A stretch of DNA of 64,000 nt, from contig CAYVKP010000001.1 of the NCBI GenBank assembly GCA_964452165.1, positions 1,715 through 65,714 of the forward strand, written 5' to 3'. This DNA is from an uncultured Gammaproteobacteria bacterium (GTDB lineage: Bacteria > Patescibacteriota > Microgenomatia > Levybacterales > GWA1-39-11). Positions 14,861 to 41,228 of the stretch are shown here, in pieces (positions within the stretch are counted from its first letter, which is position 1; each line of letters begins with the position of its first letter). The translations under genes and the position numbers were made by a program. Under the pieces are notes generated by a model that was not told the origin of the DNA, did not search any database, and saw only the letters and a program-made list of their open reading frames with translations.

Positions 14861-15643
14861 ATGCCGACGCGTACAACAAAAACCTCTTCTGCCTCCAAAG
14901 AAAATTTAATTGACAAAGCATCTACTATGCAGGCTCCTCAATTTACTTATTTCTTGCTTCTTATCGTTGTCTTTGTTCTTGGATATTTTGTTGCCCGCGT
15001 TCAATTTTTTGAAAAAGGTAATGGCGGAACTACTCCAACAACCGCACCTTCTGGGCAAGCTGCTGCGCCACAAGCACCATCTGTTCCTGATCCAAAAGAT
15101 GTTTTGAAGAAGATTACCAACGGCCATTTTCCAGTTAAGGGAAACTCCAACGCCAAAGTTAAGATTGTAGAATTTGCAGACTTCCGCTGCCCATTCTGTG
15201 AAAGATTCTTCACTGATACTGAGGGACAATTGATAAAAGATTACGTTGATACAGGAAAAGTAGCCTTTATTTTCAGGCAGTATGAATTCCTTGGTGCAGC
15301 ATCTGTCGTTGCCGGAAACGCAGCCGAATGTGCAAACGAGCAAGGAAAATTCTGGGAATACCACGACTGGCTTTACAAAAACCAGCCTGATGAAAGCGAT
15401 ACCTCAATGTTCAACACGGATTCCATGACTACCGCCGCAGTCTCTCTTGGAATGAACGGTGATCAATTTAGAAGCTGTCTTTCAGCAAATAAATACAATG
15501 CCAACCTCCAAAAAGATTTATCAGAAGGACAAAGCATTGGAGTCTCCGGAACACCAACTTTCTATGTTAACGGTCAACAATTAGTTGGAGCACAACCATA
15601 CACAGCCTTCAAAGCAATAATAGACACAGAGCTCAAGAAATAA
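14861..15643 (+). CDS. DsbA-family thiol:disulfide oxidoreductase, membrane-anchored
   Basis: N-terminal TM anchor, thioredoxin-fold CPFC active site, GTPTFYVNG. Confidence 0.85.
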   Translation: MPTRTTKTSSASKENLIDKASTMQAPQFTYFLLLIVVFVLGYFVARVQFFEKGNGGTTPTTAPSGQAAAPQAPSVPDPKDVLKKITNGHFPVKGNSNAKVKIVEFADFRCPFCERFFTDTEGQLIKDYVDTGKVAFIFRQYEFLGAASVVAGNAAECANEQGKFWEYHDWLYKNQPDESDTSMFNTDSMTTAAVSLGMNGDQFRSCLSANKYNANLQKDLSEGQSIGVSGTPTFYVNGQQLVGAQPYTAFKAIIDTELKK

Positions 15644-19410: not shown

Positions 19411-20835
19411 TCACCTGCGGACAACCGTCGCGACCGCGGCACCGGAGATGAGGAGAACCACCATGACACCAGCAACGATGGTCCAGATCGAACTCGAGGA
19501 GGAGCTCATGGCAAGACCTGCGTCACCGGTAGCCGGTGGCTTGATCGAAGGCGTCAGCGGCGCGTCGGCGGTGTCCACGGGGCGTGGAGCCGGTTCGGAG
19601 CCGTTGTAGTAGCCGTTGATCGCGGGCGTGTCAGCGTCACCAGCGTTCGTCGTGGTGCGACCATCGAACGTCGAGGACGTAGGAATGGGCACGTTAGATG
19701 CCGAAGGTGACTGTGCGAAGGCATCGTTCGTCGAGAAGACGTTGCTACTGACGAGCGGAGCCGGACCCTGACCCGTTGCGTAGTCCTTGACGGTGACCGT
19801 GTCTGTCGCCTGAGCGTTCACAGGATCGCTAGACGCCGTGTCGGCCGTCGTGTTGGACTGGTTGACCACGTAGACAGCGATGCAGAAGCCGGAGGGGTTC
19901 TCAGGCGCAGCGCATGCGGTCTTGGAGGCGACAGCGACGATCAGCAGACACGTAGTGCCAGGTGACGCCGTAGCGCAGCCGTTGTTGGTCAGGTTGTTCG
20001 TGTTCTGGCCGGCCAGGTTCGGCAGGCTCAGGTAGTTCGCCAGGCCAGGGTTCGAAGCGCCGATGACGACGGCGTCGAGCTGGCTGAAGTTAAGCAGACC
20101 CTGTTGTACCACGGGAAGTACGCCGAGAATTCGGCCGTCGATCAGGACCGTCAAGTGAGCGTTCGGGATCGACACAGCGTCGCGGATGTCGAGAACAGCG
20201 CCGTCAGAGCCAGCGGCCGGGACGAGTGCGTTCGTGACGTCGTTGACAGAGTTGCCCCTATTCGTGGCCTTCTCGTCACCGGTGGGGCTCGTCTGGTATG
20301 CAGCGACCGTGATGGATGCCGGCAGGCCAGTAAGCCTTAACGTGGCGGTAAGGACGATGTTCGGCACGCCGAGGTAGTTCGGCAGGCTCAGGTTGTTACC
20401 CAGCGGGTAGTTGGACTCCTGGACGTTGGTCTTGCCGAGAGTCGTTCCGGGGGCCATGTTGGTGCCCGAGTTGGCCAGGTTGGCCAGGTTCAGTTGGCTA
20501 ACGACTACGTAGTCGATGCCACTGCTGGAGAACGTAACGACCTTTTCGGCGAGGAGGATACCTCCAGGATCCGATCCGGTGTAGACGTCGTGCAACGAGT
20601 TGTTCGTCTGGACGGTCGACGCCGCAATACCTGGGGTCGAGTCAGACGTTGCCGCGGCAGTAGGAGCCGGCGAAGTCCAGAAGGCCGTCAAGCCAAACAG
20701 AACTGCTACCGTTACTGCCAGGGCGAAGAGCTTTGCCAGCGACACGCGCGGAGGCGGGTCCTGATAGTTGGTTGTGTGTCTGGTTTTCACCGGACACTCC
20801 TTTCCTTGCAAGGAAATGCCTGCATTCTGCAGCAT
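19411..20835 (-). CDS. cell-surface protein with sortase-type C-terminal sorting signal
   Basis: C-terminus KPPATGDAG + hydrophobic helix IWTIVAGVMVVLLISGAAVATVV + RR tail. N-terminal signal/anchor LAKLFALAVTVAVLFGL. Internal NLSLPNYLG/NYLSLPNLAG repeats. The likely true start is GTG 20790 (AAGGAG 6 nt upstream). Confidence 0.75.
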   Translation of the reverse strand: MLQNAGISLQGKECPVKTRHTTNYQDPPPRVSLAKLFALAVTVAVLFGLTAFWTSPAPTAAATSDSTPGIAASTVQTNNSLHDVYTGSDPGGILLAEKVVTFSSSGIDYVVVSQLNLANLANSGTNMAPGTTLGKTNVQESNYPLGNNLSLPNYLGVPNIVLTATLRLTGLPASITVAAYQTSPTGDEKATNRGNSVNDVTNALVPAAGSDGAVLDIRDAVSIPNAHLTVLIDGRILGVLPVVQQGLLNFSQLDAVVIGASNPGLANYLSLPNLAGQNTNNLTNNGCATASPGTTCLLIVAVASKTACAAPENPSGFCIAVYVVNQSNTTADTASSDPVNAQATDTVTVKDYATGQGPAPLVSSNVFSTNDAFAQSPSASNVPIPTSSTFDGRTTTNAGDADTPAINGYYNGSEPAPRPVDTADAPLTPSIKPPATGDAGLAMSSSSSSIWTIVAGVMVVLLISGAAVATVVRR

Positions 20836-21562
20836 GGGTTGTGAAAAGAACGTTCCTCCCTCGCACCTTGCGAGATAGATCTTAGCTCTAAGCTATCCAC
20901 TTTGTGTACGGGTGTCTTTCCGGCGTCTGTCCTCGATGCCTCCCTCGGATGAGATCACTGCTGAGAACATCAAGGGCCAGGCCTTTCAGACTTTCCCGAA
21001 CTTTCGAGATCATCCCCTTTCAGTACTGCCTCTACGGTCAGTACTCTATTTCCAAGAGCTTGCCGAAGCGGGCGGCGGATCACAAGGCTACGCGGGGTGT
21101 ACCCGTTTCAGACTCGCTCTGAGAAAGCATTGGAGGGACGCCCCTTTTCCCTACGGACCAATCCGGCACTTTGCCGAACTTAAAATGTGTTGGGACGTCC
21201 CCTGATGATTAGCAGGTCTTCGATTCAAGCGAACACGTGCCCTGCACGTAATGCGTACAAATCCGCTCGTTTTCCGTTCAGCCGAATGCGTTGACGCACG
21301 GTTGATCTTTGACCTGCTCGTGGGAGCTCACCTCATCAGGGTGGCTTCTGGTAGTGATGCACCTTGCATCTCCTTTCTATTGATAGTAATCATCTCCGAC
21401 CCGAGCACCGAGAGCAGACTTTCGTCGCTGGCTCGACAACCGGAGAGAATCCCCTTAGTGGGAGACGTCCCATTTTTACTTACCCCACAAATGCCCGTCG
21501 TAAAGACAGGTTCCTCCTTTCTGAACTAGGAGCTGGACGCGGGACGTCTCCGGCGGCAATGG

Positions 21563-21750
21563 GTTTAGACAGTCAATACGAACCCTCCTTTCAGGGTTAT
21601 TCAGATAAGGCTCCGGGGAGTGAGCCTGGATCTGGCTGGTGGGAGGTAGCAGCAATAGACAGGGGGACAGGACCCTGTACTCGGCGCTTACTGCTACCAG
21701 ATGGTTTGGGAGGAACCCTACCATCCTTTTCCCAAGAACGTGCAAGTCCG
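21563..21750 (-). repeat. internal structured module, copy I
   Basis: Shares ordered blocks with copy II: ATAC, hairpin, AGATAAGG, hairpin, CCTGGATCTGGCTGG, GGTA..GCAG stem, AGATGG...CCATCCTTTYCCC, GTGCA(A)GTC. Confidence 0.6.
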
Positions 21751-22075
21751 AGGATTTCTCCTTGGACTGGGAATGGCTATGGAGACCATGGAGCGATGGG
21801 TCCAGAGGGCCTCCTGGTTGTTAGGGCGGAGCTCTTATCCGTGTCAGTGCGTTGTAGACATTTGCACTTTCCATGGCACCCTTCCTCTTTCGAGAATGGC
21901 TGGAGATCCGGCCTCGTACGAGTGGTCGCCTCTTATGAGGACTGAGCAGCTGGCTGCAACCAGACTTTTATATCTCAGCAACGACCATAGGCTGTGCTGC
22001 CATTAGGGCGGAGAGCGTGACCGGGTCACTATGCAAACGCGTCTGTTAAGAAGCGTCCACTTCCGGTTTACCTCC

Positions 22076-22250
22076 ACCATACTCGACTCCTCCCTTCGAG
22101 TCTTCCTAGATAAGGTCTCAGCACTAGACCTGGATCTGGCTGGCGGGGTACGGCAGCTGAAACACGAATGCGATCGTGACACCACTGCCTAAAGATGGGT
22201 TCCAAGCCATCCTTTCCCCGATGAAAAGTGCAGTCTCCTCACGATGAGAA
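22076..22250 (-). repeat. internal structured module, copy II
   Basis: See copy I. It lies about 510 nt away in the same orientation. Confidence 0.6.
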
Positions 22251-22522
22251 GACGTAGTTTTCCAGGAGGTGAAGGTCTCTTCACTTGCGCAGGCCACCAC
22301 GCGAAGAGAGCTTGCACCACTAGCCTGGTGAGTGTCGTCAACCGCCATACCACAGATCGTGGTAGTCCAGCACAAGGCGGAGACAAGACAACTCCTGGAC
22401 TCATCGAGATAGCAAGATGAGCCTAATTTGCGTCATTCAAGTGGAAAGCCATTCCACAAGAAAGTTATTTTGAATAACGAACAACAATAAAATAAAACTA
22501 AAATTTGATTTTTGTAAAATCC

Positions 22523-22546
22523 TTAAAAAAGACTCCTTCTGGAGTG
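22523..22546 (-). terminator. intrinsic terminator inside leader A (minus strand ACTCC-AGAA-GGAGT + T6)
   Basis: Hairpin at 22531-22545 with A6 on the plus strand at 22525-22530. Confidence 0.6.
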
Positions 22547-22720
22547 TGGGGTTGTGAATTCAGACAATAAACAAACTCGTAATTATTGCCTCAGCTCACA
22601 ACCGGACACAAGCGCTATGCAAATAAGCGCTGTCAAAAGAAGTTATGCGAACTGGTTGTTAAAGTGCAAAACTTTTTTGCCAGAACGCATGCATTTGCAT
22701 AAAGGCATTATGTTATGTAA
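22523..22720 (-). promoter_or_regulatory. leader A: conserved 5' leader/sRNA-like element downstream of promoter A
   Basis: Shares ATTACATA, TGCATGC and the TTTYGC.CTTTAACAACCRGTT.GCR.AACTTCTTT block with leader B. Additional hairpins are AGCGCT...AGCGCT and GGTTGTGA...TCACAACC. Confidence 0.5.
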
Positions 22721-22724
22721 TGCG

Positions 22725-22753
22725 AGTATATCTCTAAGGGAATTGCTTTTCAA
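22725..22753 (-). promoter_or_regulatory. promoter A: TTGAAA-N17-TATACT
   Basis: -10 box is the reverse complement of 22725-22730, and the -35 box the reverse complement of 22748-22753. The spacer is exactly 17 nt. Confidence 0.6.
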
Positions 22754-22904: not shown

Positions 22905-24398
22905 CTATCTTCTGGTAGGAACTTGTGTCGCAAGACACTGTCCTGTCGCGATGACGTAATAGTCGCAGTTAGTCGGCGGCTGAGGATTTCCGCTTGGCTT
23001 CTGCGGCTGGACAGGCTGTTGCTGGACCGAAGGACCCGAGTTGGCCTTGCCAACAATCTGGTACGTTGCGGTGTTGCTTACGAGCGGTGTGTTGCCGTCG
23101 TATAGCGTAATCCTAAGCGTATCAGTGCCAAGTGGCGGAGCAACATTGCCCGTCGATTGACAGCCTGTGCCGGCGTTCACGTATTTGCTGACTGGCCGAG
23201 TCGCCGGACTTCCGTCTTGGGGAGAGTCGGTAACAACTATCGTACCAGCCTGCGACACATTCCAGCAGAACTTACCACTCGTGTAGACCGTTATGACTGA
23301 TGGATCAGCCCAAACGCTCACAGTAGCGGCAGGTGGTGGAGGTGCCGGACGAGATGTCGGCGCGGGTGGTGGTGCCGCGGGCGCTTGGGGCGCAGGCGGA
23401 ACCTTGGTCGCTGTTGGCGGTGGCGCTTGAACCTGCTGAACTTGCGGAGCAGGCGTTGGCGGCGTGAACGACCCAATGTTGGGTGCTGGACCCGACTTTT
23501 TTTGAATCTCAACGGAAGTGGTGTCTACCGCGACTTTCACGTCGTCGACATATGCTACTGCAGCGATGCTGTAGATGCCAGGAATGACATTGTCGACGAT
23601 TGGAATCGTGGTGCAGGACTTTTCTTCCGAAGAATACCCATTCCACAACGGCGTTGGCTCCTCTCCTTCTCGGGAGAAAGTTGAAACTACTCTGTACCAG
23701 ATCTTCTTGTTGAGCTGGAAACAAAGAGTTGCGCGGTCTCCTTCGACGTAGACGTTCTTGCCGTCATTGAACCACACTTTTAGAGTGTAGCTGAACGGAG
23801 CAGGCGTTGATGTTGCCGTTGACGGTGCCGCCTTCACCTCAGGGTGATCGTAGTCATCCCTAAGTTGGGAGTGTAACCACCCCATCACAGGTGAAAAACG
23901 ACCCTTGGTGTCAATTATGTTCGCTGGAGAAATCTGTAGGCTGGTTTGCCATTTTTCACCAACGTTCTGCTGAACGAAGGTGATTTTTCCGTTCGCCACT
24001 CCGGTGACCAGCGCCACATGTCCCCAAGGCCACTCCTCGTTTTTCCCGAAAACGAGAATGTCTCCCGGAACAGGAGCAGTTGAAGAACCGTTTTCGTACA
24101 CGTTGGCGAAGTTAATGTTGTCCTTGTTTCCAAACATCTCAAATGCATTGAGACCCCAGTTGTAAGGACCCCATTCTCTCTCGCCCCAGTAACGCTGAAC
24201 GAATTCGACGCACTGCCACTCAATACCGTACTTTGACGAACGTCCGGAGTAGTAAAACGGGTCATCTCCGTTGGAGAAGATGTCCGTTTTGTCGTAGGTT
24301 CCAAGACGCTGTCCGAATGACGACGACGCCATAACGATACCTACGAAAATGAGGGGGCTCAATCCCAGAAGGACTGCAGCCCTGACTAACCTGATCAT
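22905..24398 (-). CDS. secreted CHAP-domain peptidoglycan amidase/endopeptidase with two beta-rich domains and Pro-rich linkers
   Basis: Signal peptide. CHAP catalytic pattern ...GIEWQCVEFVQRYW... (Cys) and ...WPWGHVALVTGV... (His). PAPQ/PPP linkers. Confidence 0.9.
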   Translation of the reverse strand: MIRLVRAAVLLGLSPLIFVGIVMASSSFGQRLGTYDKTDIFSNGDDPFYYSGRSSKYGIEWQCVEFVQRYWGEREWGPYNWGLNAFEMFGNKDNINFANVYENGSSTAPVPGDILVFGKNEEWPWGHVALVTGVANGKITFVQQNVGEKWQTSLQISPANIIDTKGRFSPVMGWLHSQLRDDYDHPEVKAAPSTATSTPAPFSYTLKVWFNDGKNVYVEGDRATLCFQLNKKIWYRVVSTFSREGEEPTPLWNGYSSEEKSCTTIPIVDNVIPGIYSIAAVAYVDDVKVAVDTTSVEIQKKSGPAPNIGSFTPPTPAPQVQQVQAPPPTATKVPPAPQAPAAPPPAPTSRPAPPPPAATVSVWADPSVITVYTSGKFCWNVSQAGTIVVTDSPQDGSPATRPVSKYVNAGTGCQSTGNVAPPLGTDTLRITLYDGNTPLVSNTATYQIVGKANSGPSVQQQPVQPQKPSGNPQPPTNCDYYVIATGQCLATQVPTRR

Positions 24399-24403
24399 GA
24401 CCT

Positions 24404-24973
24404 TTACTCCTTCTCGAATTTGAAGGTACTCAGGATTTGAGGTCCGATTCCCTTCATGATATTGAACGTAGCGGATTGGCTCGGCGAAATGCCGTAAAGC
24501 CTACTACCTTCTTGAATGAACCACCTGACGTAGACAGGGTGGACGTCCGGCTGTTCAAGCCAACGCTTCTGGTTAGTAAGTTCGAGACAGCTTCCGCTTG
24601 TCAGCGTGAAGGAACAAGGGGAGAAAACCAGGCGCTTGCCCGCATCCCCGAGTTGGTCTCTAACTGAAGCCTCTACGTCGTTAGCTGATGCCACCTTTTC
24701 GTATCGAATGACAGCAAAGCCTGCGTACAACTCGCCGTCGTTCTCAAATTCCAGGTGCAAGATGTTGCCCGGATCTGTCTCGTACGTATCCTTGTGGAGA
24801 TCGAGATCCTTGATCTTTCCCGAAAGCCACCCGTCCTGGAAGTCTTCCCAGTCCGCAGTACTTGCGGTAGCCGGAATGACTGGCAGGGTAGATACTGGCT
24901 TCTTGGTCGAGCCTCCGCATGCTGCGAGCAGTGGAAGCACTAGGAGCAGTAATACCGAGACTGTCTGTCTCAC
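24404..24973 (-). CDS. lipoprotein, hypothetical (possible partner/immunity protein of the CHAP enzyme)
   Basis: GTG start with a GGTAGAGG RBS. Lipobox LPLLAAC. The stop lies 5 nt before the CHAP gene start. Confidence 0.75.
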   Translation of the reverse strand: MRQTVSVLLLLVLPLLAACGGSTKKPVSTLPVIPATASTADWEDFQDGWLSGKIKDLDLHKDTYETDPGNILHLEFENDGELYAGFAVIRYEKVASANDVEASVRDQLGDAGKRLVFSPCSFTLTSGSCLELTNQKRWLEQPDVHPVYVRWFIQEGSRLYGISPSQSATFNIMKGIGPQILSTFKFEKE

Positions 24974-25310
24974 TTCGCACCTCTACCTTCCGTAGTCTAT
25001 TCGTGCTAGGTTGATATTCGACCCTGCTGGGTCTTGTGCTTTACCTTGTTTTATTTTCGTCGTCGTTCTCCTTTTTTAAATTCCGCTTCTTGGCGGAAAC
25101 TATCGTGCGTATTTTGTTTAGTCTTCTTTCGGCCGAATGCAAAATTCCGGACCCGAACTTTTTATCTGGTCAAGAACTTTGCATTCGATAAACACCTTGC
25201 TTTATAGTGCTTTCTGAAAGAAGTTTCGCAACCGGTTGTTAAAGAGCGAAAAACCTCGCGCTACAATGCATGCAAACGCACTAAGCCACGAGGAATTACT
25301 ATGTAATTGG
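24974..25310 (-). promoter_or_regulatory. leader B: about 335-nt structured 5' leader of the lipoprotein-CHAP operon
   Basis: The conserved 5' block is shared with leader A. Hairpins GAATGCAAA...TTTGCATTC and TTCCGC-CAAGAA-GCGGAA + TTT. Confidence 0.5.
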
Positions 25311-25339
25311 AGTATAACGCCGTCTGAGACGGTTTTCAA
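25311..25339 (-). promoter_or_regulatory. promoter B: TTGAAA-N17-TATACT
   Basis: -10 box is the reverse complement of 25311-25316, and the -35 box the reverse complement of 25334-25339. The hexamers and spacing are identical to promoter A. Confidence 0.6.
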
Positions 25340-25391: not shown

Positions 25392-25595
25392 CTACGTTTT
25401 ACCCCACGTTACGCGGTTCCATACCCTTTCATGTAGGTAATAAAAGACTAACTTCAAAATTCCTTCGGCGCCTCCAACTCCGATTGAAAGAAGTAATTTA
25501 CGCGTGAAGACGAAAACAACCGCTGCTGTAGTAAGTGAAGCAATAATTCTCCAAGTAATAGTTTTGGCAACGCTGCGGTGGCTCTCCTCCTTCAT
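25392..25595 (-). CDS. DUF2061-like small membrane protein
   Basis: 67 aa: KTITWRIIASLTT...YYLHERVWNRV pattern with two TM helices. Confidence 0.6.
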   Translation of the reverse strand: MKEESHRSVAKTITWRIIASLTTAAVVFVFTRKLLLSIGVGGAEGILKLVFYYLHERVWNRVTWGKT

Positions 25596-27811
25596 TAAAA
25601 TTGAGCTTTCCTACCGTAGCGCTCTTTGGAGTAACGAATAATCGCATCACGGTTTTCATTCTTAACATTTGGAAGCGGCAAGGTGGTTGCAGGGAAAGGC
25701 GCTGAGGTCATTCCGTCAATTGAAAGCTTTAAAACTATTTCAAATTTGCCAAGGGATACTAGGTCATTTTCGGTGTAAATCTCCGCATATTCCTTTGTAA
25801 GTCGCTCCGCATCTTGTGCACCGACAACAAAAGACATAAGAGTTCCGACATTTCCATAAATTGCATATTGAATCTCCTCCTCAAGCTGATCCGAATATTG
25901 ATTTGCTAAAGTCAAAGACAAGCGATATTTTCGTGCTTCGGATAGAATTTTAATGAAAGAGCTGGTTGCAAAATTTTGGAACTCATCAACGTATAGGAAA
26001 AAGTCACGTCTACTCTCCTCTTTCTGAAAAGATCTATTCATTGCAGCAAGCTGAATTTGGGTGATAACCATTGCTCCAAGAAGTGCCGCGTTATCCTCTC
26101 CTAATTTTCCCTGTGATAAATTAAGAATCAAGATTTTTCCTTCGTCCATTATCTCCTGAAGATTAATTGAAGAAGTGGGGTGGCCAATAATGTTACGGAT
26201 CATTTTTGATGAGACAAATTGTCCTACCTTGTTTTGGATTGGAGAAACAGCCTCAGCCTTTAGCTTATCCGGCATCCTGGCAAACTCAGCTTCCCAGAAA
26301 TTCTTGAGAACCGGGTCTGATAGTTTTGCAACAATTCTTGCACGAAACGCATCGTCTGATAATATTCTCAACGCGTCAATTAGAGTACCCTCCTCAACGT
26401 CGAGAAGGGTCAAAATAACATTTCGCAAGATATATTCAAGGCGCGGACCCCAAGATTCTCCATAAATCTTGTGGAAGATCGAGACAATTCCCGATGAGAC
26501 CAAGTCTTTATGCTGAGAATTACGAACCTCCAAAACGTTTAGCGAGAACGGGCGCTCGGCATCAAAAGGCTCCAGATAAACTACGTCATTGAGTCGTCTC
26601 TTTGGAATGTAATCCATAATAATCTCCGATAAATCTCCGTGAGGGTCAATGATTCCAATTCCGCGGTCTTTGCGAATATCGTCAATTGCCATGTTGGCAA
26701 TTAAAGTGGATTTTCCGGCTCCGGTTTTTCCAATAACGTAAACGTGTTTTCTCCTGTCGGGCGTTTTTATTCCAAAAATTGTTTCGGCATTTTTGAATTC
26801 GGTTTTTGCAAAAAAGTTGATATCCTTCTTTTCTTCTTCGGTAATGGCAGTTATAACCGGAAGATCTTCGGGTGGTTCTCCAAGAAGAGTCTTACCCCAA
26901 GCAATATTCTTAACCCCGGCAAGCAAGAATCCTGTGGGGTGCCAAATGGTTGCGAGTTCCTGAGCATTTAATATCTGTGTGCGCTTTTCAAGATAATAGG
27001 TTGAACGGTTTTTAATCCTTTCAATAAAGTTTTTCTTGCGGATAAGCGGACGCTTCAACTCAAATTCATTTCCGTCACCGTGAGAGAATATTCCAAACGT
27101 TCCCGCAAGATTTCGCAGATATAATCTTGGATCTGTATTTTCCGTACCTACAACTAGACGAATAAGCGCTTTTCCTCCTTGAAATGAGGCTTTTTGCATG
27201 ATTAAAAGTTGTTGTGGATCGCGGGCGTATCTGGCCGTTTCGGTACTATGTGCTTCAACCCCGGCCGTAGCAGGAGAAGTATGGGAGTCTGTTCCTGCAA
27301 GTATCATTTGCCCTGCTCGTTTTACGGCCCTTGCCTGCCAATCAAAAGACGCTGAGGTTACAAGAATCTCAACAGCCATTTTAACGTCTGCCGGCTGTTT
27401 TGCTAAGAATCCGATCAGCGCGCCTAAGGTATCTATGTCTTCAAAGTCGGCATAAGTCTTTGTTGGAAGATAAAATTCGTTATCCAGAACCAATTGACCT
27501 ACTGATATGTGCTTGCTGTCAAAAACTTTTGGCATAGGGTCCTCGGTTTTTTCAATTGATGAGGTTGGAAAAGAGGCTGCAATTTGGCTTGCGACAAAAG
27601 TCTCCTGATCTTCATCGGCCGTTACATAGAAGTAGACCGTTTGATTGATTAGAAAAATTTCGAATGAATAATAATGTGTTTTCATCCATGATCTTTTCCA
27701 GAAGGGAACATATGCATGCGATAAGCAGGAAGCAAAAATCTGTGCTGCTGAAGCAATTGGAGTCTCATCGTCCTTAGGATTTCTGACTAAAAGATGTACC
27801 AGTTTTCTCAT
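25595..27811 (-). CDS. TraD/VirD4-like (type IV secretion DNA-binding/coupling-type) P-loop ATPase
   Basis: Walker A GKTGAGKST and Walker B FFLYVDEFQNF. The C-terminal half resembles TraG/TraD-family ATPases. The N-terminal about 350 aa is uncharacterised. Confidence 0.75.
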   Translation of the reverse strand: MRKLVHLLVRNPKDDETPIASAAQIFASCLSHAYVPFWKRSWMKTHYYSFEIFLINQTVYFYVTADEDQETFVASQIAASFPTSSIEKTEDPMPKVFDSKHISVGQLVLDNEFYLPTKTYADFEDIDTLGALIGFLAKQPADVKMAVEILVTSASFDWQARAVKRAGQMILAGTDSHTSPATAGVEAHSTETARYARDPQQLLIMQKASFQGGKALIRLVVGTENTDPRLYLRNLAGTFGIFSHGDGNEFELKRPLIRKKNFIERIKNRSTYYLEKRTQILNAQELATIWHPTGFLLAGVKNIAWGKTLLGEPPEDLPVITAITEEEKKDINFFAKTEFKNAETIFGIKTPDRRKHVYVIGKTGAGKSTLIANMAIDDIRKDRGIGIIDPHGDLSEIIMDYIPKRRLNDVVYLEPFDAERPFSLNVLEVRNSQHKDLVSSGIVSIFHKIYGESWGPRLEYILRNVILTLLDVEEGTLIDALRILSDDAFRARIVAKLSDPVLKNFWEAEFARMPDKLKAEAVSPIQNKVGQFVSSKMIRNIIGHPTSSINLQEIMDEGKILILNLSQGKLGEDNAALLGAMVITQIQLAAMNRSFQKEESRRDFFLYVDEFQNFATSSFIKILSEARKYRLSLTLANQYSDQLEEEIQYAIYGNVGTLMSFVVGAQDAERLTKEYAEIYTENDLVSLGKFEIVLKLSIDGMTSAPFPATTLPLPNVKNENRDAIIRYSKERYGRKAQF

Positions 27812-39344: not shown

Positions 39345-39351
39345 TTAATTG

Positions 39352-39423
39352 CGCTCCCGGCGGGAATCGAACCCACATTAGAGGATCCGGAATCCCCCGT
39401 TCTATCCGTTGAACTACGGGAGC
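39352..39423 (-). tRNA. tRNA-Arg (anticodon CCG)
   Basis: The reverse complement GCTCCCGTAGTTCAACGGATAGAACGGGGGATTCCGGATCCTCTAATGTGGGTTCGATTCCCGCCGGGAGCG. Confidence 0.9.
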
Positions 39424-39451
39424 AAATGCGTCCGCGCCGAACAAAGTGAGG

Positions 39452-39536
39452 CGGAGGGTACAGGATTCGAACCTGTGAATCCCTTACAGGATCGAGTTTT
39501 CGAAACTCGTGCAATTGACCGCTATGCGAACCCTCC
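39452..39536 (-). tRNA. tRNA-Ser (anticodon CGA)
   Basis: The reverse complement GGAGGGTTCGCATAGCGGTCAATTGCACGAGTTTCGAAAACTCG + long variable arm + ACAGGTTCGAATCCTGTACCCTCCG. Confidence 0.9.
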
Positions 39537-39621
39537 AAGTTTCTCCCCAAAATATAAAATTTTTGGGGACCCCGGTTTTGTTTTGAGGCCTCCATTGCTT
39601 TCGCAATGGAGAGAAAATCTG

Positions 39622-39694
39622 CGTACCCGAGAGGAATCGAACCTCCAACCGCCTGGACCGCAACCAGGTGTTCTATCCATTGAACTACGGGTAC
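39622..39694 (-). tRNA. tRNA-Arg (anticodon GCG)
   Basis: The reverse complement GTACCCGTAGTTCAATGGATAGAACACCTGGTTGCGGTCCAGGCGGTTGGAGGTTCGATTCCTCTCGGGTACG. Confidence 0.85.
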
Positions 39695-40361: not shown

Positions 40362-41228
40362 TTAAAGCTCAAGAAGAGAGGTTGATTCACCGTTTTTAAC
40401 TTCCTTAAGATACTGAAGGTAGCGCTCGGTTGAAGAAAGTCTTTTGTGGCCTAGAATCTTTGATAAAAATACGATAGATATACCGTTCTTGAGGTGGTGA
40501 GCAACAAAAGTGTGGCGGAGATCATTTATCTTAGCGTTTTCAATTCCGGCTTTCCTGAAATATCGCTCTATGGCATCGCGAATATTACGTACCAGGAAAG
40601 GTTTACCGGTTTTTGTGACAAAAAGGTGGTCGTCTGGGGTCTGAGGTCTTGCGTCCATATATCGCCTTAAAGCTTCCTTTGCACGCTTATTTAGAGGAAC
40701 TTCTCGTGCGGCGTGTCCTTCATAAGTCCTTATTGCCAAAACCCCATCTTTTGCATCTTCAGAGCGTATGTTTGCAAGCTCCCCGATTCTTACACCTGTT
40801 TGAAGTAAAATTTCAACTATTGCAAAGATCCTTGGATCAGACGAGGCAGAATCACGAAGCGCTCTATATTCAAGAGGGGACAAAACCCTTGGGGGATTCA
40901 ACTCATACTTTGGGTGCTTCACCAGAAGTGAGGGGTCATCAGTGATAAATTCACTTACTTTGAGAAACCTATAGAATGTGCGCGTCGAGTTGAGTTTTCT
41001 TGAGACTGATTTTGGGGTGTATCCTTTCGTCTGCATAGAAACCAAGAAGGCCTGAATGTCGTCTGAGTTGACCTCGTGAACATTTTCCTTCTTAAGCTCA
41101 GCGAGAAAGCCAATAAGCTGATCAATATCCTTGCCATAGGCAAGAATTGTGGCAGAGGCTTTATTTTTTGACTTCAGGAATTCCTGGAAGCGGTCTTTAG
41201 CGTCTTTAATTCTAATTGCAGTTGCCAT
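40362..41228 (-). CDS. tyrosine recombinase (XerC/XerD-like)
   Basis: N-terminal SAM-like domain. Catalytic residues in ...RIGEL..., LRHTFVAHHL, GHKRLSSTERYLQ. Confidence 0.9.
   Translation of the reverse strand: MATAIRIKDAKDRFQEFLKSKNKASATILAYGKDIDQLIGFLAELKKENVHEVNSDDIQAFLVSMQTKGYTPKSVSRKLNSTRTFYRFLKVSEFITDDPSLLVKHPKYELNPPRVLSPLEYRALRDSASSDPRIFAIVEILLQTGVRIGELANIRSEDAKDGVLAIRTYEGHAAREVPLNKRAKEALRRYMDARPQTPDDHLFVTKTGKPFLVRNIRDAIERYFRKAGIENAKINDLRHTFVAHHLKNGISIVFLSKILGHKRLSSTERYLQYLKEVKNGESTSLLEL

Follow-up and report, generated by a model that had tools for sequence, protein, structure and literature searches.

The window analysed here is a 64,000-nt stretch of contig CAYVKP010000001.1 (positions 1,715 to 65,714), deposited under an uncultured Gammaproteobacteria bacterium and assigned by GTDB to the Patescibacteriota. 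On its minus strand, it carries a gene for a 189-aa lipoprotein, here called the partner, followed directly by a gene for a 497-aa secreted amidase with a CHAP domain. The two genes form one conserved, dedicated two-protein module: in all ten distinct loci examined, a same-subfamily CHAP gene is immediately preceded by a gene for a partner relative. The comparisons presented below suggest that the partner is probably the dedicated binding partner of the amidase. Our preferred reading, to which we assign a probability of about 40%, is that the partner acts as a cognate, immunity-type inhibitor of the enzyme.

The partner gene (24404-24973, minus strand) starts with GTG and the CHAP gene (22905-24398, minus strand) with ATG. 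A preceding sequence-only reading of the stretch had described a lipoprotein gene with the lipobox LLAAC that ends 5 nt before the CHAP gene; both open reading frames (ORFs) and the gap were found. The coupled layout was confirmed as well, as the ribosome-binding site of the CHAP gene is situated inside the final codons of the partner gene. In the coupling junction (24399-24412, minus strand), the Shine-Dalgarno (SD) sequence AAGGAG (24412-24407) is made up of the two final sense codons of the partner gene and is followed by its stop codon TAA (24406-24404), the 5-nt spacer AGGTC and the ATG of the CHAP gene (24398-24396). The coding strand thus reads GAG-AAG-GAG-TAA-AGGTC-ATG. The same layout of (G)GAG, stop codon, 4 or 5 nt and start codon was observed in all loci from bacteria of the Candidate Phyla Radiation (CPR), namely L004, L005, L007, L008 and L009. 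CPR partners end in an invariant Glu, probably because the SD sequence of the CHAP gene is located in the last codons of the partner gene. Both genes are probably co-expressed from their own promoter and leader upstream of the pair. No defence system of PADLOC was matched by the pair.

The loci inspected were the window, L004, L005, L006 (= L007), L008, L009, L010, L011, L015, L016 and L017. They originate from CPR bacteria, including one Levybacteria genome, and from unrelated bacteria with a G + C content of 57-66%. Co-occurrence in other genomes was thereby checked and the order of the two genes found to be the same throughout, which excludes chance juxtaposition. The pairing holds with either protein as query: locus L017 was reached from the CHAP side, and the gene upstream of its CHAP gene matches the partner profile with an E value of 9e-48. 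A Candidatus Levybacteria genome is the closest named locus with the pair. In four loci from the bacteria with 57-66% G + C, the partner has a transmembrane (TM) anchor instead of a lipobox and the gap between the genes is 20-37 nt. Neighbour-joining trees of the partner and the CHAP domain are broadly congruent, with the CPR copies forming one clade and the GC-rich copies falling outside of it. The partner family is rare, with 15 clusters in 1.84 billion representatives in an exhaustive HMMER profile search, and word-indexed searches returned few relatives. Literature searches yielded neither a paper nor a curated family on this pairing or on a PsbP-like partner of a CHAP enzyme.

The CHAP protein starts with a Sec-type signal peptide read from the sequence (residues 1-24, MIRLVRAAVLLGLSPLIFVGIVMA, followed by SSS), and its CHAP domain spans residues 27-185 approximately. 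Pfam family PF05257 was matched at residues 57-145 with an E value of 7.9e-14 and 52.4 bits, compared to a cut-off of 26. Cys63 in the motif WQCVEF and His127 in the motif WGHVALV are both invariant in 11 family members. The triplet Gln143-Gln144-Asn145 is invariant in the subfamily, and Gln143, which replaces the Glu usually found at this position (as in glutathionylspermidine (Gsp) amidase and LysK), is the putative third catalytic residue next to Cys and His, a polar one as is typical for CHAP domains. The signal peptide, the N-terminal catalytic domain and the catalytic Cys and His (in WQCVEFV and WGHVALV) reported earlier were thus all recovered, and the catalytic domain shows no sign of inactivation at these positions.

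Two beta-rich domains joined by long PAPQ/PPP linkers had also been proposed, and two Cys-pair domains and three linkers could be located. The extended layout had been read as that of a surface-reaching hydrolase more than of a housekeeping autolysin; from the sequence, either may apply. The linkers are rich in Pro, Ala, Thr, Ser and Gln and comprise residues 186-200, about 301-361 and 458-477. Domain 1 covers residues of about 199-300 with the pair Cys226/Cys262, domain 2 residues 363-458 with Cys378/Cys413, and the C-terminal tail contains Cys478/Cys488. Domain 2 is homologous to domains that are repeated in relatives of the protein (E values of 1e-12 to 1e-6), to which domain 1 is weakly similar (E value of about 0.02). 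Pfam detected CHAP alone in this protein, and no LysM, SH3b or sortase signal was found.

The best PDB matches of the CHAP domain are Gsp amidase (E value of 8.5e-9) and trypanothione synthetase-amidase (1e-5), while the wall hydrolases LytN and LysK rank behind both (1e-3 to 0.06). The closest solved relative, the Gsp synthetase/amidase of E. coli (PDB 3a2z, 2io7), shares the WQCVEF, GHVA and Q-N motifs. However, that enzyme is cytoplasmic, is linked to a synthetase and carries Glu in place of Gln143, whereas the CHAP protein is secreted and has extracellular domains attached. The Gsp amidase equivalog NF007801 of NCBIfam scored 36 bits, far below its cut-off of 882, and aligned with the amidase domain alone. 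Instead of peptidoglycan, the enzyme might hydrolyse an amide of another kind, for instance in a surface-bound polyamine or peptide conjugate that the partner would present to it. The PDB ranking and the NCBIfam match point in this direction, but the protein is secreted, PHROG endolysin families match its CHAP domain with an E value of 2e-11, and characterised secreted CHAP proteins are overwhelmingly wall hydrolases. We regard this option as hardly probable and take peptidoglycan as the presumed substrate.

The N-terminus of the partner (MRQTVSVLLLLVLPLLAAC, followed by GG) contains the lipobox L-A-A-C, in line with the pattern [LVI][ASTVI][GAS]C. Four CPR relatives kept a lipobox (LQGC, LVAC, LVAC and LAAC), while a TM anchor replaces it in the fifth (P0014) and in the most distant relatives. 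Lgt and LspA had no match among the ORFs scanned in the window, which is part of the 650-kb genome. The exact lipoprotein sequence is recorded only in Logan assemblies, whereas neighbouring genes are recorded from NCBI too, so that the deposited annotation may lack this gene with its GTG start or delimit it in another way.

No sequence match of the window partner was obtained in Pfam, NCBIfam or PDB. Pfam PsbP_2 is matched by 2 of the 15 aligned family sequences; the family itself is absent from Pfam and may be new. A structure predicted from this 15-sequence family alignment displays a PsbP/Mog1-like fold with the antiparallel beta-sheet and flanking helices of this superfamily. The highest fold-match figure was obtained for BT_1490 (7.9), followed by Mog1 (7.0 and 6.5), CyanoP (6.4), PA0094/EagT6 (6.3), Tsi3, LpqN and TplEi/Tli4 (6.0 each) and PA3488/Tli5 (5.9). 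Cys120 and Cys129 are invariant across the family, while the intervening residues 123-127 belong to the most variable columns (2.3-3.1 bits). This pattern describes what is predicted to be a disulfide-stapled hypervariable loop. The C-terminal motif of the partner is GIGPQILST. A gene for a DsbA-like thioredoxin (14861-15643, plus strand) is part of the conserved neighbourhood and also occurs in L009 and L010; its presence is consistent with formation of extracellular disulfides by the Cys pairs of both proteins.

The predicted fold is common to the type VI immunity proteins Tsi3, Tli4 and Tli5, to Eag chaperones and to LpqN. In the original structure paper of Tsi3, Mog1p and PsbP were given as its nearest folds (PMC3792639), and PsbP/MOG1 genes were reported to adjoin toxin genes of type VI secretion systems (T6SS) (Zhang et al., PMC3482391). 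The pair Tse3-Tsi3 of Pseudomonas aeruginosa, a type VI muramidase with its periplasmic immunity protein, has no sequence similarity to the present pair. Tse3 is a muramidase, whereas the enzyme described here is a CHAP amidase exported via Sec by a monoderm-type bacterium without T6SS, and its inhibition by the partner is presumed. T6SS and type VII secretion genes were not detected among the window ORFs scanned against Pfam. In Tse1-Tsi1 and the Tae/Tai pairs, a papain-like Cys/His peptidoglycan amidase is likewise combined with a dedicated extracytoplasmic binding protein. Tsi1 and Tai proteins have different folds, their cognate effectors are delivered by T6SS and the immunity gene is usually found downstream. 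The earlier statement that a lipoprotein encoded immediately upstream of a wall-degrading enzyme is the usual arrangement of immunity-effector pairs was too strong.

Other known proteins are related by fold or by function. The mycobacterial PsbP/Mog1-fold proteins LpqN, Mtc28 and Apa have no sequence relationship with the partner and are not paired with a CHAP enzyme; their binding partners are transporters or host proteins. The lysozyme inhibitors Ivy, MliC and PliC have a different fold, act on foreign (host) lysozymes and are not encoded together with the enzyme. The similarity to Eag/DUF1795 proteins raises the question of whether the partner is an export or maturation chaperone that retains the amidase while or after it passes through Sec, perhaps up to the formation of its disulfides, and subsequently releases it. 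This is quite unlikely, as Eag chaperones are cytoplasmic and bind TM helices of T6SS effectors, whereas the partner is extracytoplasmic and the enzyme lacks such helices after cleavage of the signal peptide.

In monoderms, secreted or extracellular wall hydrolases that rely on a membrane-anchored partner are also known from PcsB-FtsEX, SagB-SpdC, LytH-ActH and SleB-YpeB; PcsB has a CHAP domain, and sleB-ypeB likewise forms a two-gene operon. The partners in these systems are polytopic or unrelated, activate or stabilise the enzyme and belong to broadly conserved families. To our knowledge, none of FtsEX, SpdC, ActH and YpeB has a PsbP-like fold. Hence, combinations of a wall hydrolase with its own extracytoplasmic partner are known in general, while the pairing of a CHAP enzyme with a PsbP-fold protein appears to be new.

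Comparison of the window with the 149-kb contig L009 revealed the same gene order of tryptophanyl-tRNA synthetase (TrpRS), acylphosphatase, FtsH, VirD4-like protein, partner, CHAP protein, 5'-3' exonuclease, GT4 and DsbA. L009 lacks a DUF2061 gene, a gene for a 474-aa protein and an ORF-less stretch of 1.5 kb, all of which are present in the window. The flanking proteins share identities of 85% (VirD4-like), 78% (FtsH), 73% (5'-3' exonuclease), 68% (GT4) and 61% (TrpRS) with their counterparts in L009. For the pair, we observed identities of 38% for the partner and 48% for the CHAP domain, and no alignment was obtained between the C-terminal parts of the CHAP proteins. Between the window and L004, the VirD4-like proteins are 89% identical, compared to 55% for the partner and 56% for the CHAP protein. 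The pair diverges about three to four times faster than its flanks. Adjacency in 10 of 10 loci together with joint rapid divergence (38% and 48% against 61-85% for the flanks) is the combination expected of effector-immunity pairs.

The window has a G + C content of 40%, with a GC-rich island at about 19.2-25.0 kb that reaches 50-62%. The G + C content at third codon positions (GC3) amounts to 0.57-0.61 in the two genes of the pair and to 0.75 in the 474-aa gene, compared to 0.28-0.44 for 40 other scored ORFs. The pair is also GC-rich relative to its flanks in L004 and the Levybacteria loci. This composition points to a horizontal origin from GC-rich bacteria, in-place allele replacement, or both. 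In the trees, the distance of the window copy to that of L009 is no smaller than to the Levybacteria copies, and with 0.42 and 0.49 the GC3 values of the L009 pair are nearly host-like, which indicates that the pair either evolves very fast or was replaced in place. An assembly chimera was considered as the cause of the jump in G + C content and rejected: both junctions were reproduced in independent Logan assemblies of three runs, the samples of which may be those of the genome itself. Another GC-rich gene (57-59% G + C, 208 aa, N-terminal TM segment, no Pfam match) was noticed at 7150-7776 in L007, a few kb from the pair in this Levybacteria contig of 30-38% G + C.

The pair could be seen as the remnant of a phage lysis cassette on an integrated element, consisting of a secreted endolysin and a lipoprotein. 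Apart from the GC-rich surroundings and the matches to PHROG endolysin families, small ORFs and a Gp49/helix-turn-helix pair near the L016 copy would fit. However, phage genes, an integrase, a tRNA gene or flanking repeats were not found at the island, the partner has no PHROG match and no relatives in 2.9 million viral contigs, and the pair is syntenic across diverged genomes. We consider this origin most improbable.

The neighbouring gene for the VirD4/TrwB-like ATPase (25595-27811), which lies just upstream of the pair in the window, L004 and L009, suggests another function. The CHAP enzyme could be a VirB1-like wall opener of a Patescibacteria type IV secretion system (T4SS) or pilus, with the lipoprotein as an accessory component. 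VirB1 proteins of monoderm T4SS often contain CHAP domains. In Patescibacteria, the role of VirB1 may fall to other hydrolases (PMC12857230, PMC12102498), which would also fit. However, the Pfam scan of ORFs from the 64-kb window detected no VirB4-, VirB6- or VirB3-like or other T4SS component. The adjacency to the VirD4-like gene is restricted to 3 of 10 loci, and the pair is not located beside a T4SS gene in the Levybacteria loci or in the GC-rich bacteria. In addition, the pair has its own promoter and leader and is set apart from the genes upstream by a terminator-like hairpin. Taken together, this makes a function in type IV secretion very unlikely.

The main and serious alternative, which is somewhat less likely than inhibition, is a role of the partner as membrane anchor or allosteric activator: it would dock the otherwise unanchored amidase at the cell's own surface and switch it on for wall remodelling or separation of daughter cells. 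Pfam recognises no wall-binding, anchoring or delivery domain in the CHAP protein, linkage and coupling of the two genes are strict, and in the window, L004 and L009 alike they keep a stable position amid housekeeping genes. As a generic scaffold for protein binding, the fold also occurs in lipoproteins without an immunity function such as LpqN. Furthermore, the organism has its own peptidoglycan machinery, and FtsX-PcsB, SpdC-SagB, ActH-LytH and YpeB-SleB provide precedents. These precedents, however, employ polytopic membrane proteins or ABC-like complexes and not a lipoprotein with PsbP fold. The distribution of the family is also very sporadic for a housekeeping function, the composition of the pair is foreign and its divergence exceeds that of the flanks by the factor of about three to four given above. 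Sporadic distribution, foreign GC3 and fast divergence are more in keeping with an accessory conflict module than with an enzyme of core housekeeping.

The inhibitor reading is favoured because of the sporadic distribution, the foreign composition, the fast joint divergence, the hypervariable stapled loop and the precedents Tsi3, Tli4 and Tli5. MurD, Glu racemase and a class A penicillin-binding protein are encoded in the window, from which it is concluded that the organism makes peptidoglycan. As the producer contains peptidoglycan, it would need protection from its own enzyme. The immunity-effector arrangement proposed in the sequence-only reading is thus plausible and partly supported. Co-occurrence in 10 of 10 loci, intact catalytic residues and fast divergence stand in its favour, and none of the three findings named there as refuting it was encountered, while a dedicated delivery domain or secretion system was not found.

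Several observations weigh against inhibition. The fold and the gene arrangement are just as compatible with a partner that anchors, activates or chaperones an autolysin. The nearest sequence relative of the CHAP domain is a cytoplasmic amidase of polyamine conjugates and not a proven wall hydrolase. Delivery domains (LXG, WXG, PAAR, Rhs and others) are absent from the enzyme by Pfam, leaving the Sec signal as its only export signal. Known Sec-secreted bacteriolysins such as lysostaphin and zoocin A are countered by wall-modifying immunity instead of binding inhibitors. Neither orphan immunity genes nor multi-copy arrays were seen among the loci, and mobile toxin cassettes do not usually keep a fixed chromosomal position amid housekeeping genes, as the pair does in three related genomes (window, L004 and L009).

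If the partner is an inhibitor, the module may work as follows. The CHAP amidase would be exported via Sec and held on its proline-rich stalks with the two disulfide-containing domains. The partner would be made first and in step with the enzyme, and would be tethered to the outer face of the cytoplasmic membrane by its lipid, or by a TM helix in some relatives, which places it where new peptidoglycan is inserted. There it would block the amidase, possibly by entry of the loop 120-129 into the catalytic cleft. Enzyme that escapes outward could then cut the wall of another cell, either the host or a competitor of the small-genome CPR bacterium.

A sigma-70-like promoter of the pair (TTGAAA-17-TATACT) is located at 25311-25339 on the minus strand, and an equivalent promoter (TTGCAA-17-TATACT) precedes the Levybacteria pairs. 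The leader is about 330 nt in length and contains a conserved element (25122-25293, minus strand) composed of the hairpins P1 and P2 and a stem P3 that encloses the hairpin P4. Hairpin P2 (25251-25224, minus strand) carries the conserved loop UCUUUAACAACCGGUU, which is 17 nt long with an extra U in other loci. In stem P3 (minus strand), CUUCUUUC (25223-25216) pairs with GAAAGAAG (25130-25123). A 35-nt core (UUGCUCUUUGAYAACCGGUUUGCGARACUUCUUUCAAA) is common to 5 of 5 distinct CPR leaders, the proteins of which are 34-56% identical. Independent minimum free energy folds gave the same P1-P2-P3-P4 architecture in 4 of the 5 leaders, with P1 and P4 forming hairpins at the same place in each locus from differing sequences.

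In the natural-sequence alignment, 95.6% of the P2/P3 cells pair, compared to about 50% when the partner strand is slid. Two compensatory pairs were found in P2/P3, for example in L004, where CGUCUUUC pairs with GAAAGACG. The observed score was reached in 25 of 500 shuffles, which for five sequences gives modest support. Hence, the leader is a candidate cis-regulatory RNA that is probably structured. A search of Rfam 15 with 6.7 kb gave no hit at E<=1, and the leader alone gave chance hits far below the gathering scores; the RNA is absent from Rfam and may be new. Scans for the leader motif returned the known Levybacteria locus and two chance hits from metagenomes and none from viral contigs, and the element is missing from the GC-rich loci. 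As the 3' strand of P3 resembles the SD sequence of the partner gene (GAAAGG), expression may be set by a decoy or anti-SD switch, in which the CU-rich CUUCUUUC would pair with the SD-like decoy GAAAGAAG.

The promoter and leader occur a second time, in diverged form, at 22525-22753 (minus strand), downstream of the CHAP gene. This copy features the promoter TTGAAA-17-TATACT (22753-22725) and the core motif (22664-22645), so that the window contains two matches to the leader motif compared to 0.01 expected. The copy ends in a terminator-like hairpin, ACUCC-AGAA-GGAGU with a U-run (22545-22532), which overlaps the strand equivalent to P3-3'. This second copy may act as an orphan attenuator or small RNA in front of the ORF-less stretch and the 474-aa gene.

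The 474-aa ORF (19411-20835, minus strand) has a G + C content of 62% and no family match, including PHROG. Its product has an N-terminal hydrophobic segment, internal repeats of the type LPNYLGVPN or LPNLAG and a C-terminal tail of PPATGD, a hydrophobic stretch and RR. A similar tail (IPATGP, a hydrophobic stretch and RRK) is present in a CLIPPER-domain protein of the Levybacteria locus L007 (5990-6688). From these features, the 474-aa protein is probably a sortase-anchored surface protein.

The ORF-less stretch at 20880-22420 (about 1.5 kb, 53-56% G + C) contains all three types of stop codon in every frame. It shows a constant 3-base phase in G + C content over about 1.3 kb (0.46-0.48 at mod 3 = 0, 0.52-0.63 at the other positions), which suggests a decayed gene. 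No homologue was found in Rfam, Pfam, phage or plasmid collections or the fetched loci. A decayed second copy of the pair was rejected since tblastn with all family proteins returned nothing, a gene in an alternative genetic code because of the stop codons in all frames, and a known RNA for want of an Rfam match. A strongly structured RNA was rejected as well, as sliding windows of 300 nt are no more structured than neighbouring coding DNA; one 941-nt fold gave a z-score of -4.4 (20 shuffles).

Among the other window ORFs are FtsH, a TrpRS/TyrRS-type synthetase, YidC and an ATP-dependent DNA ligase. The VirD4/TrwB/HerA-like ATPase (minus strand) is encoded stand-alone next to FtsH and matches the PADLOC model mad8 (E value of 2e-14); its L009 copy also matches Pfam DUF8128. 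A gene for a 67-aa DUF2061 membrane protein (25392-25595, minus strand) lies between the VirD4-like gene and the pair and is missing there in L004 as well as L009. A tyrosine recombinase of the phage-integrase family (40362-41228, minus strand) adjoins a cluster of tRNA genes (Arg, Ser, Arg) at 39351-39694. This site may be an integration hot spot, or the recombinase an XerC/D homologue.

A more far-reaching interpretation, which is unlikely as a whole, would regard the module as a host-directed wall opener of CPR episymbionts. GC-rich bacteria, perhaps of the host lineage, would have been the donors of the amidase and its cognate membrane-tethered inhibitor, and an arms race would have led to repeated replacement of the pair in situ. 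The module would be switched on by an undescribed riboswitch-like leader, and the second leader copy would control the neighbouring surface-protein locus, yielding a small contact-dependent regulon.

If the partner is an inhibitor, the pair would represent a Sec-dependent amidase/inhibitor module of monoderm-type bacteria that is built on a type VI immunity fold. The logic of effector and immunity protein would then extend to CPR bacteria, whose breaching of host walls is poorly understood. If the partner is instead an anchor or activator, it would constitute a new mode of controlling CHAP autolysins. Either way, the partner family, its stapled hypervariable loop and the leader RNA are testable, and recombinant expression of the pair does not require a culture of the organism.

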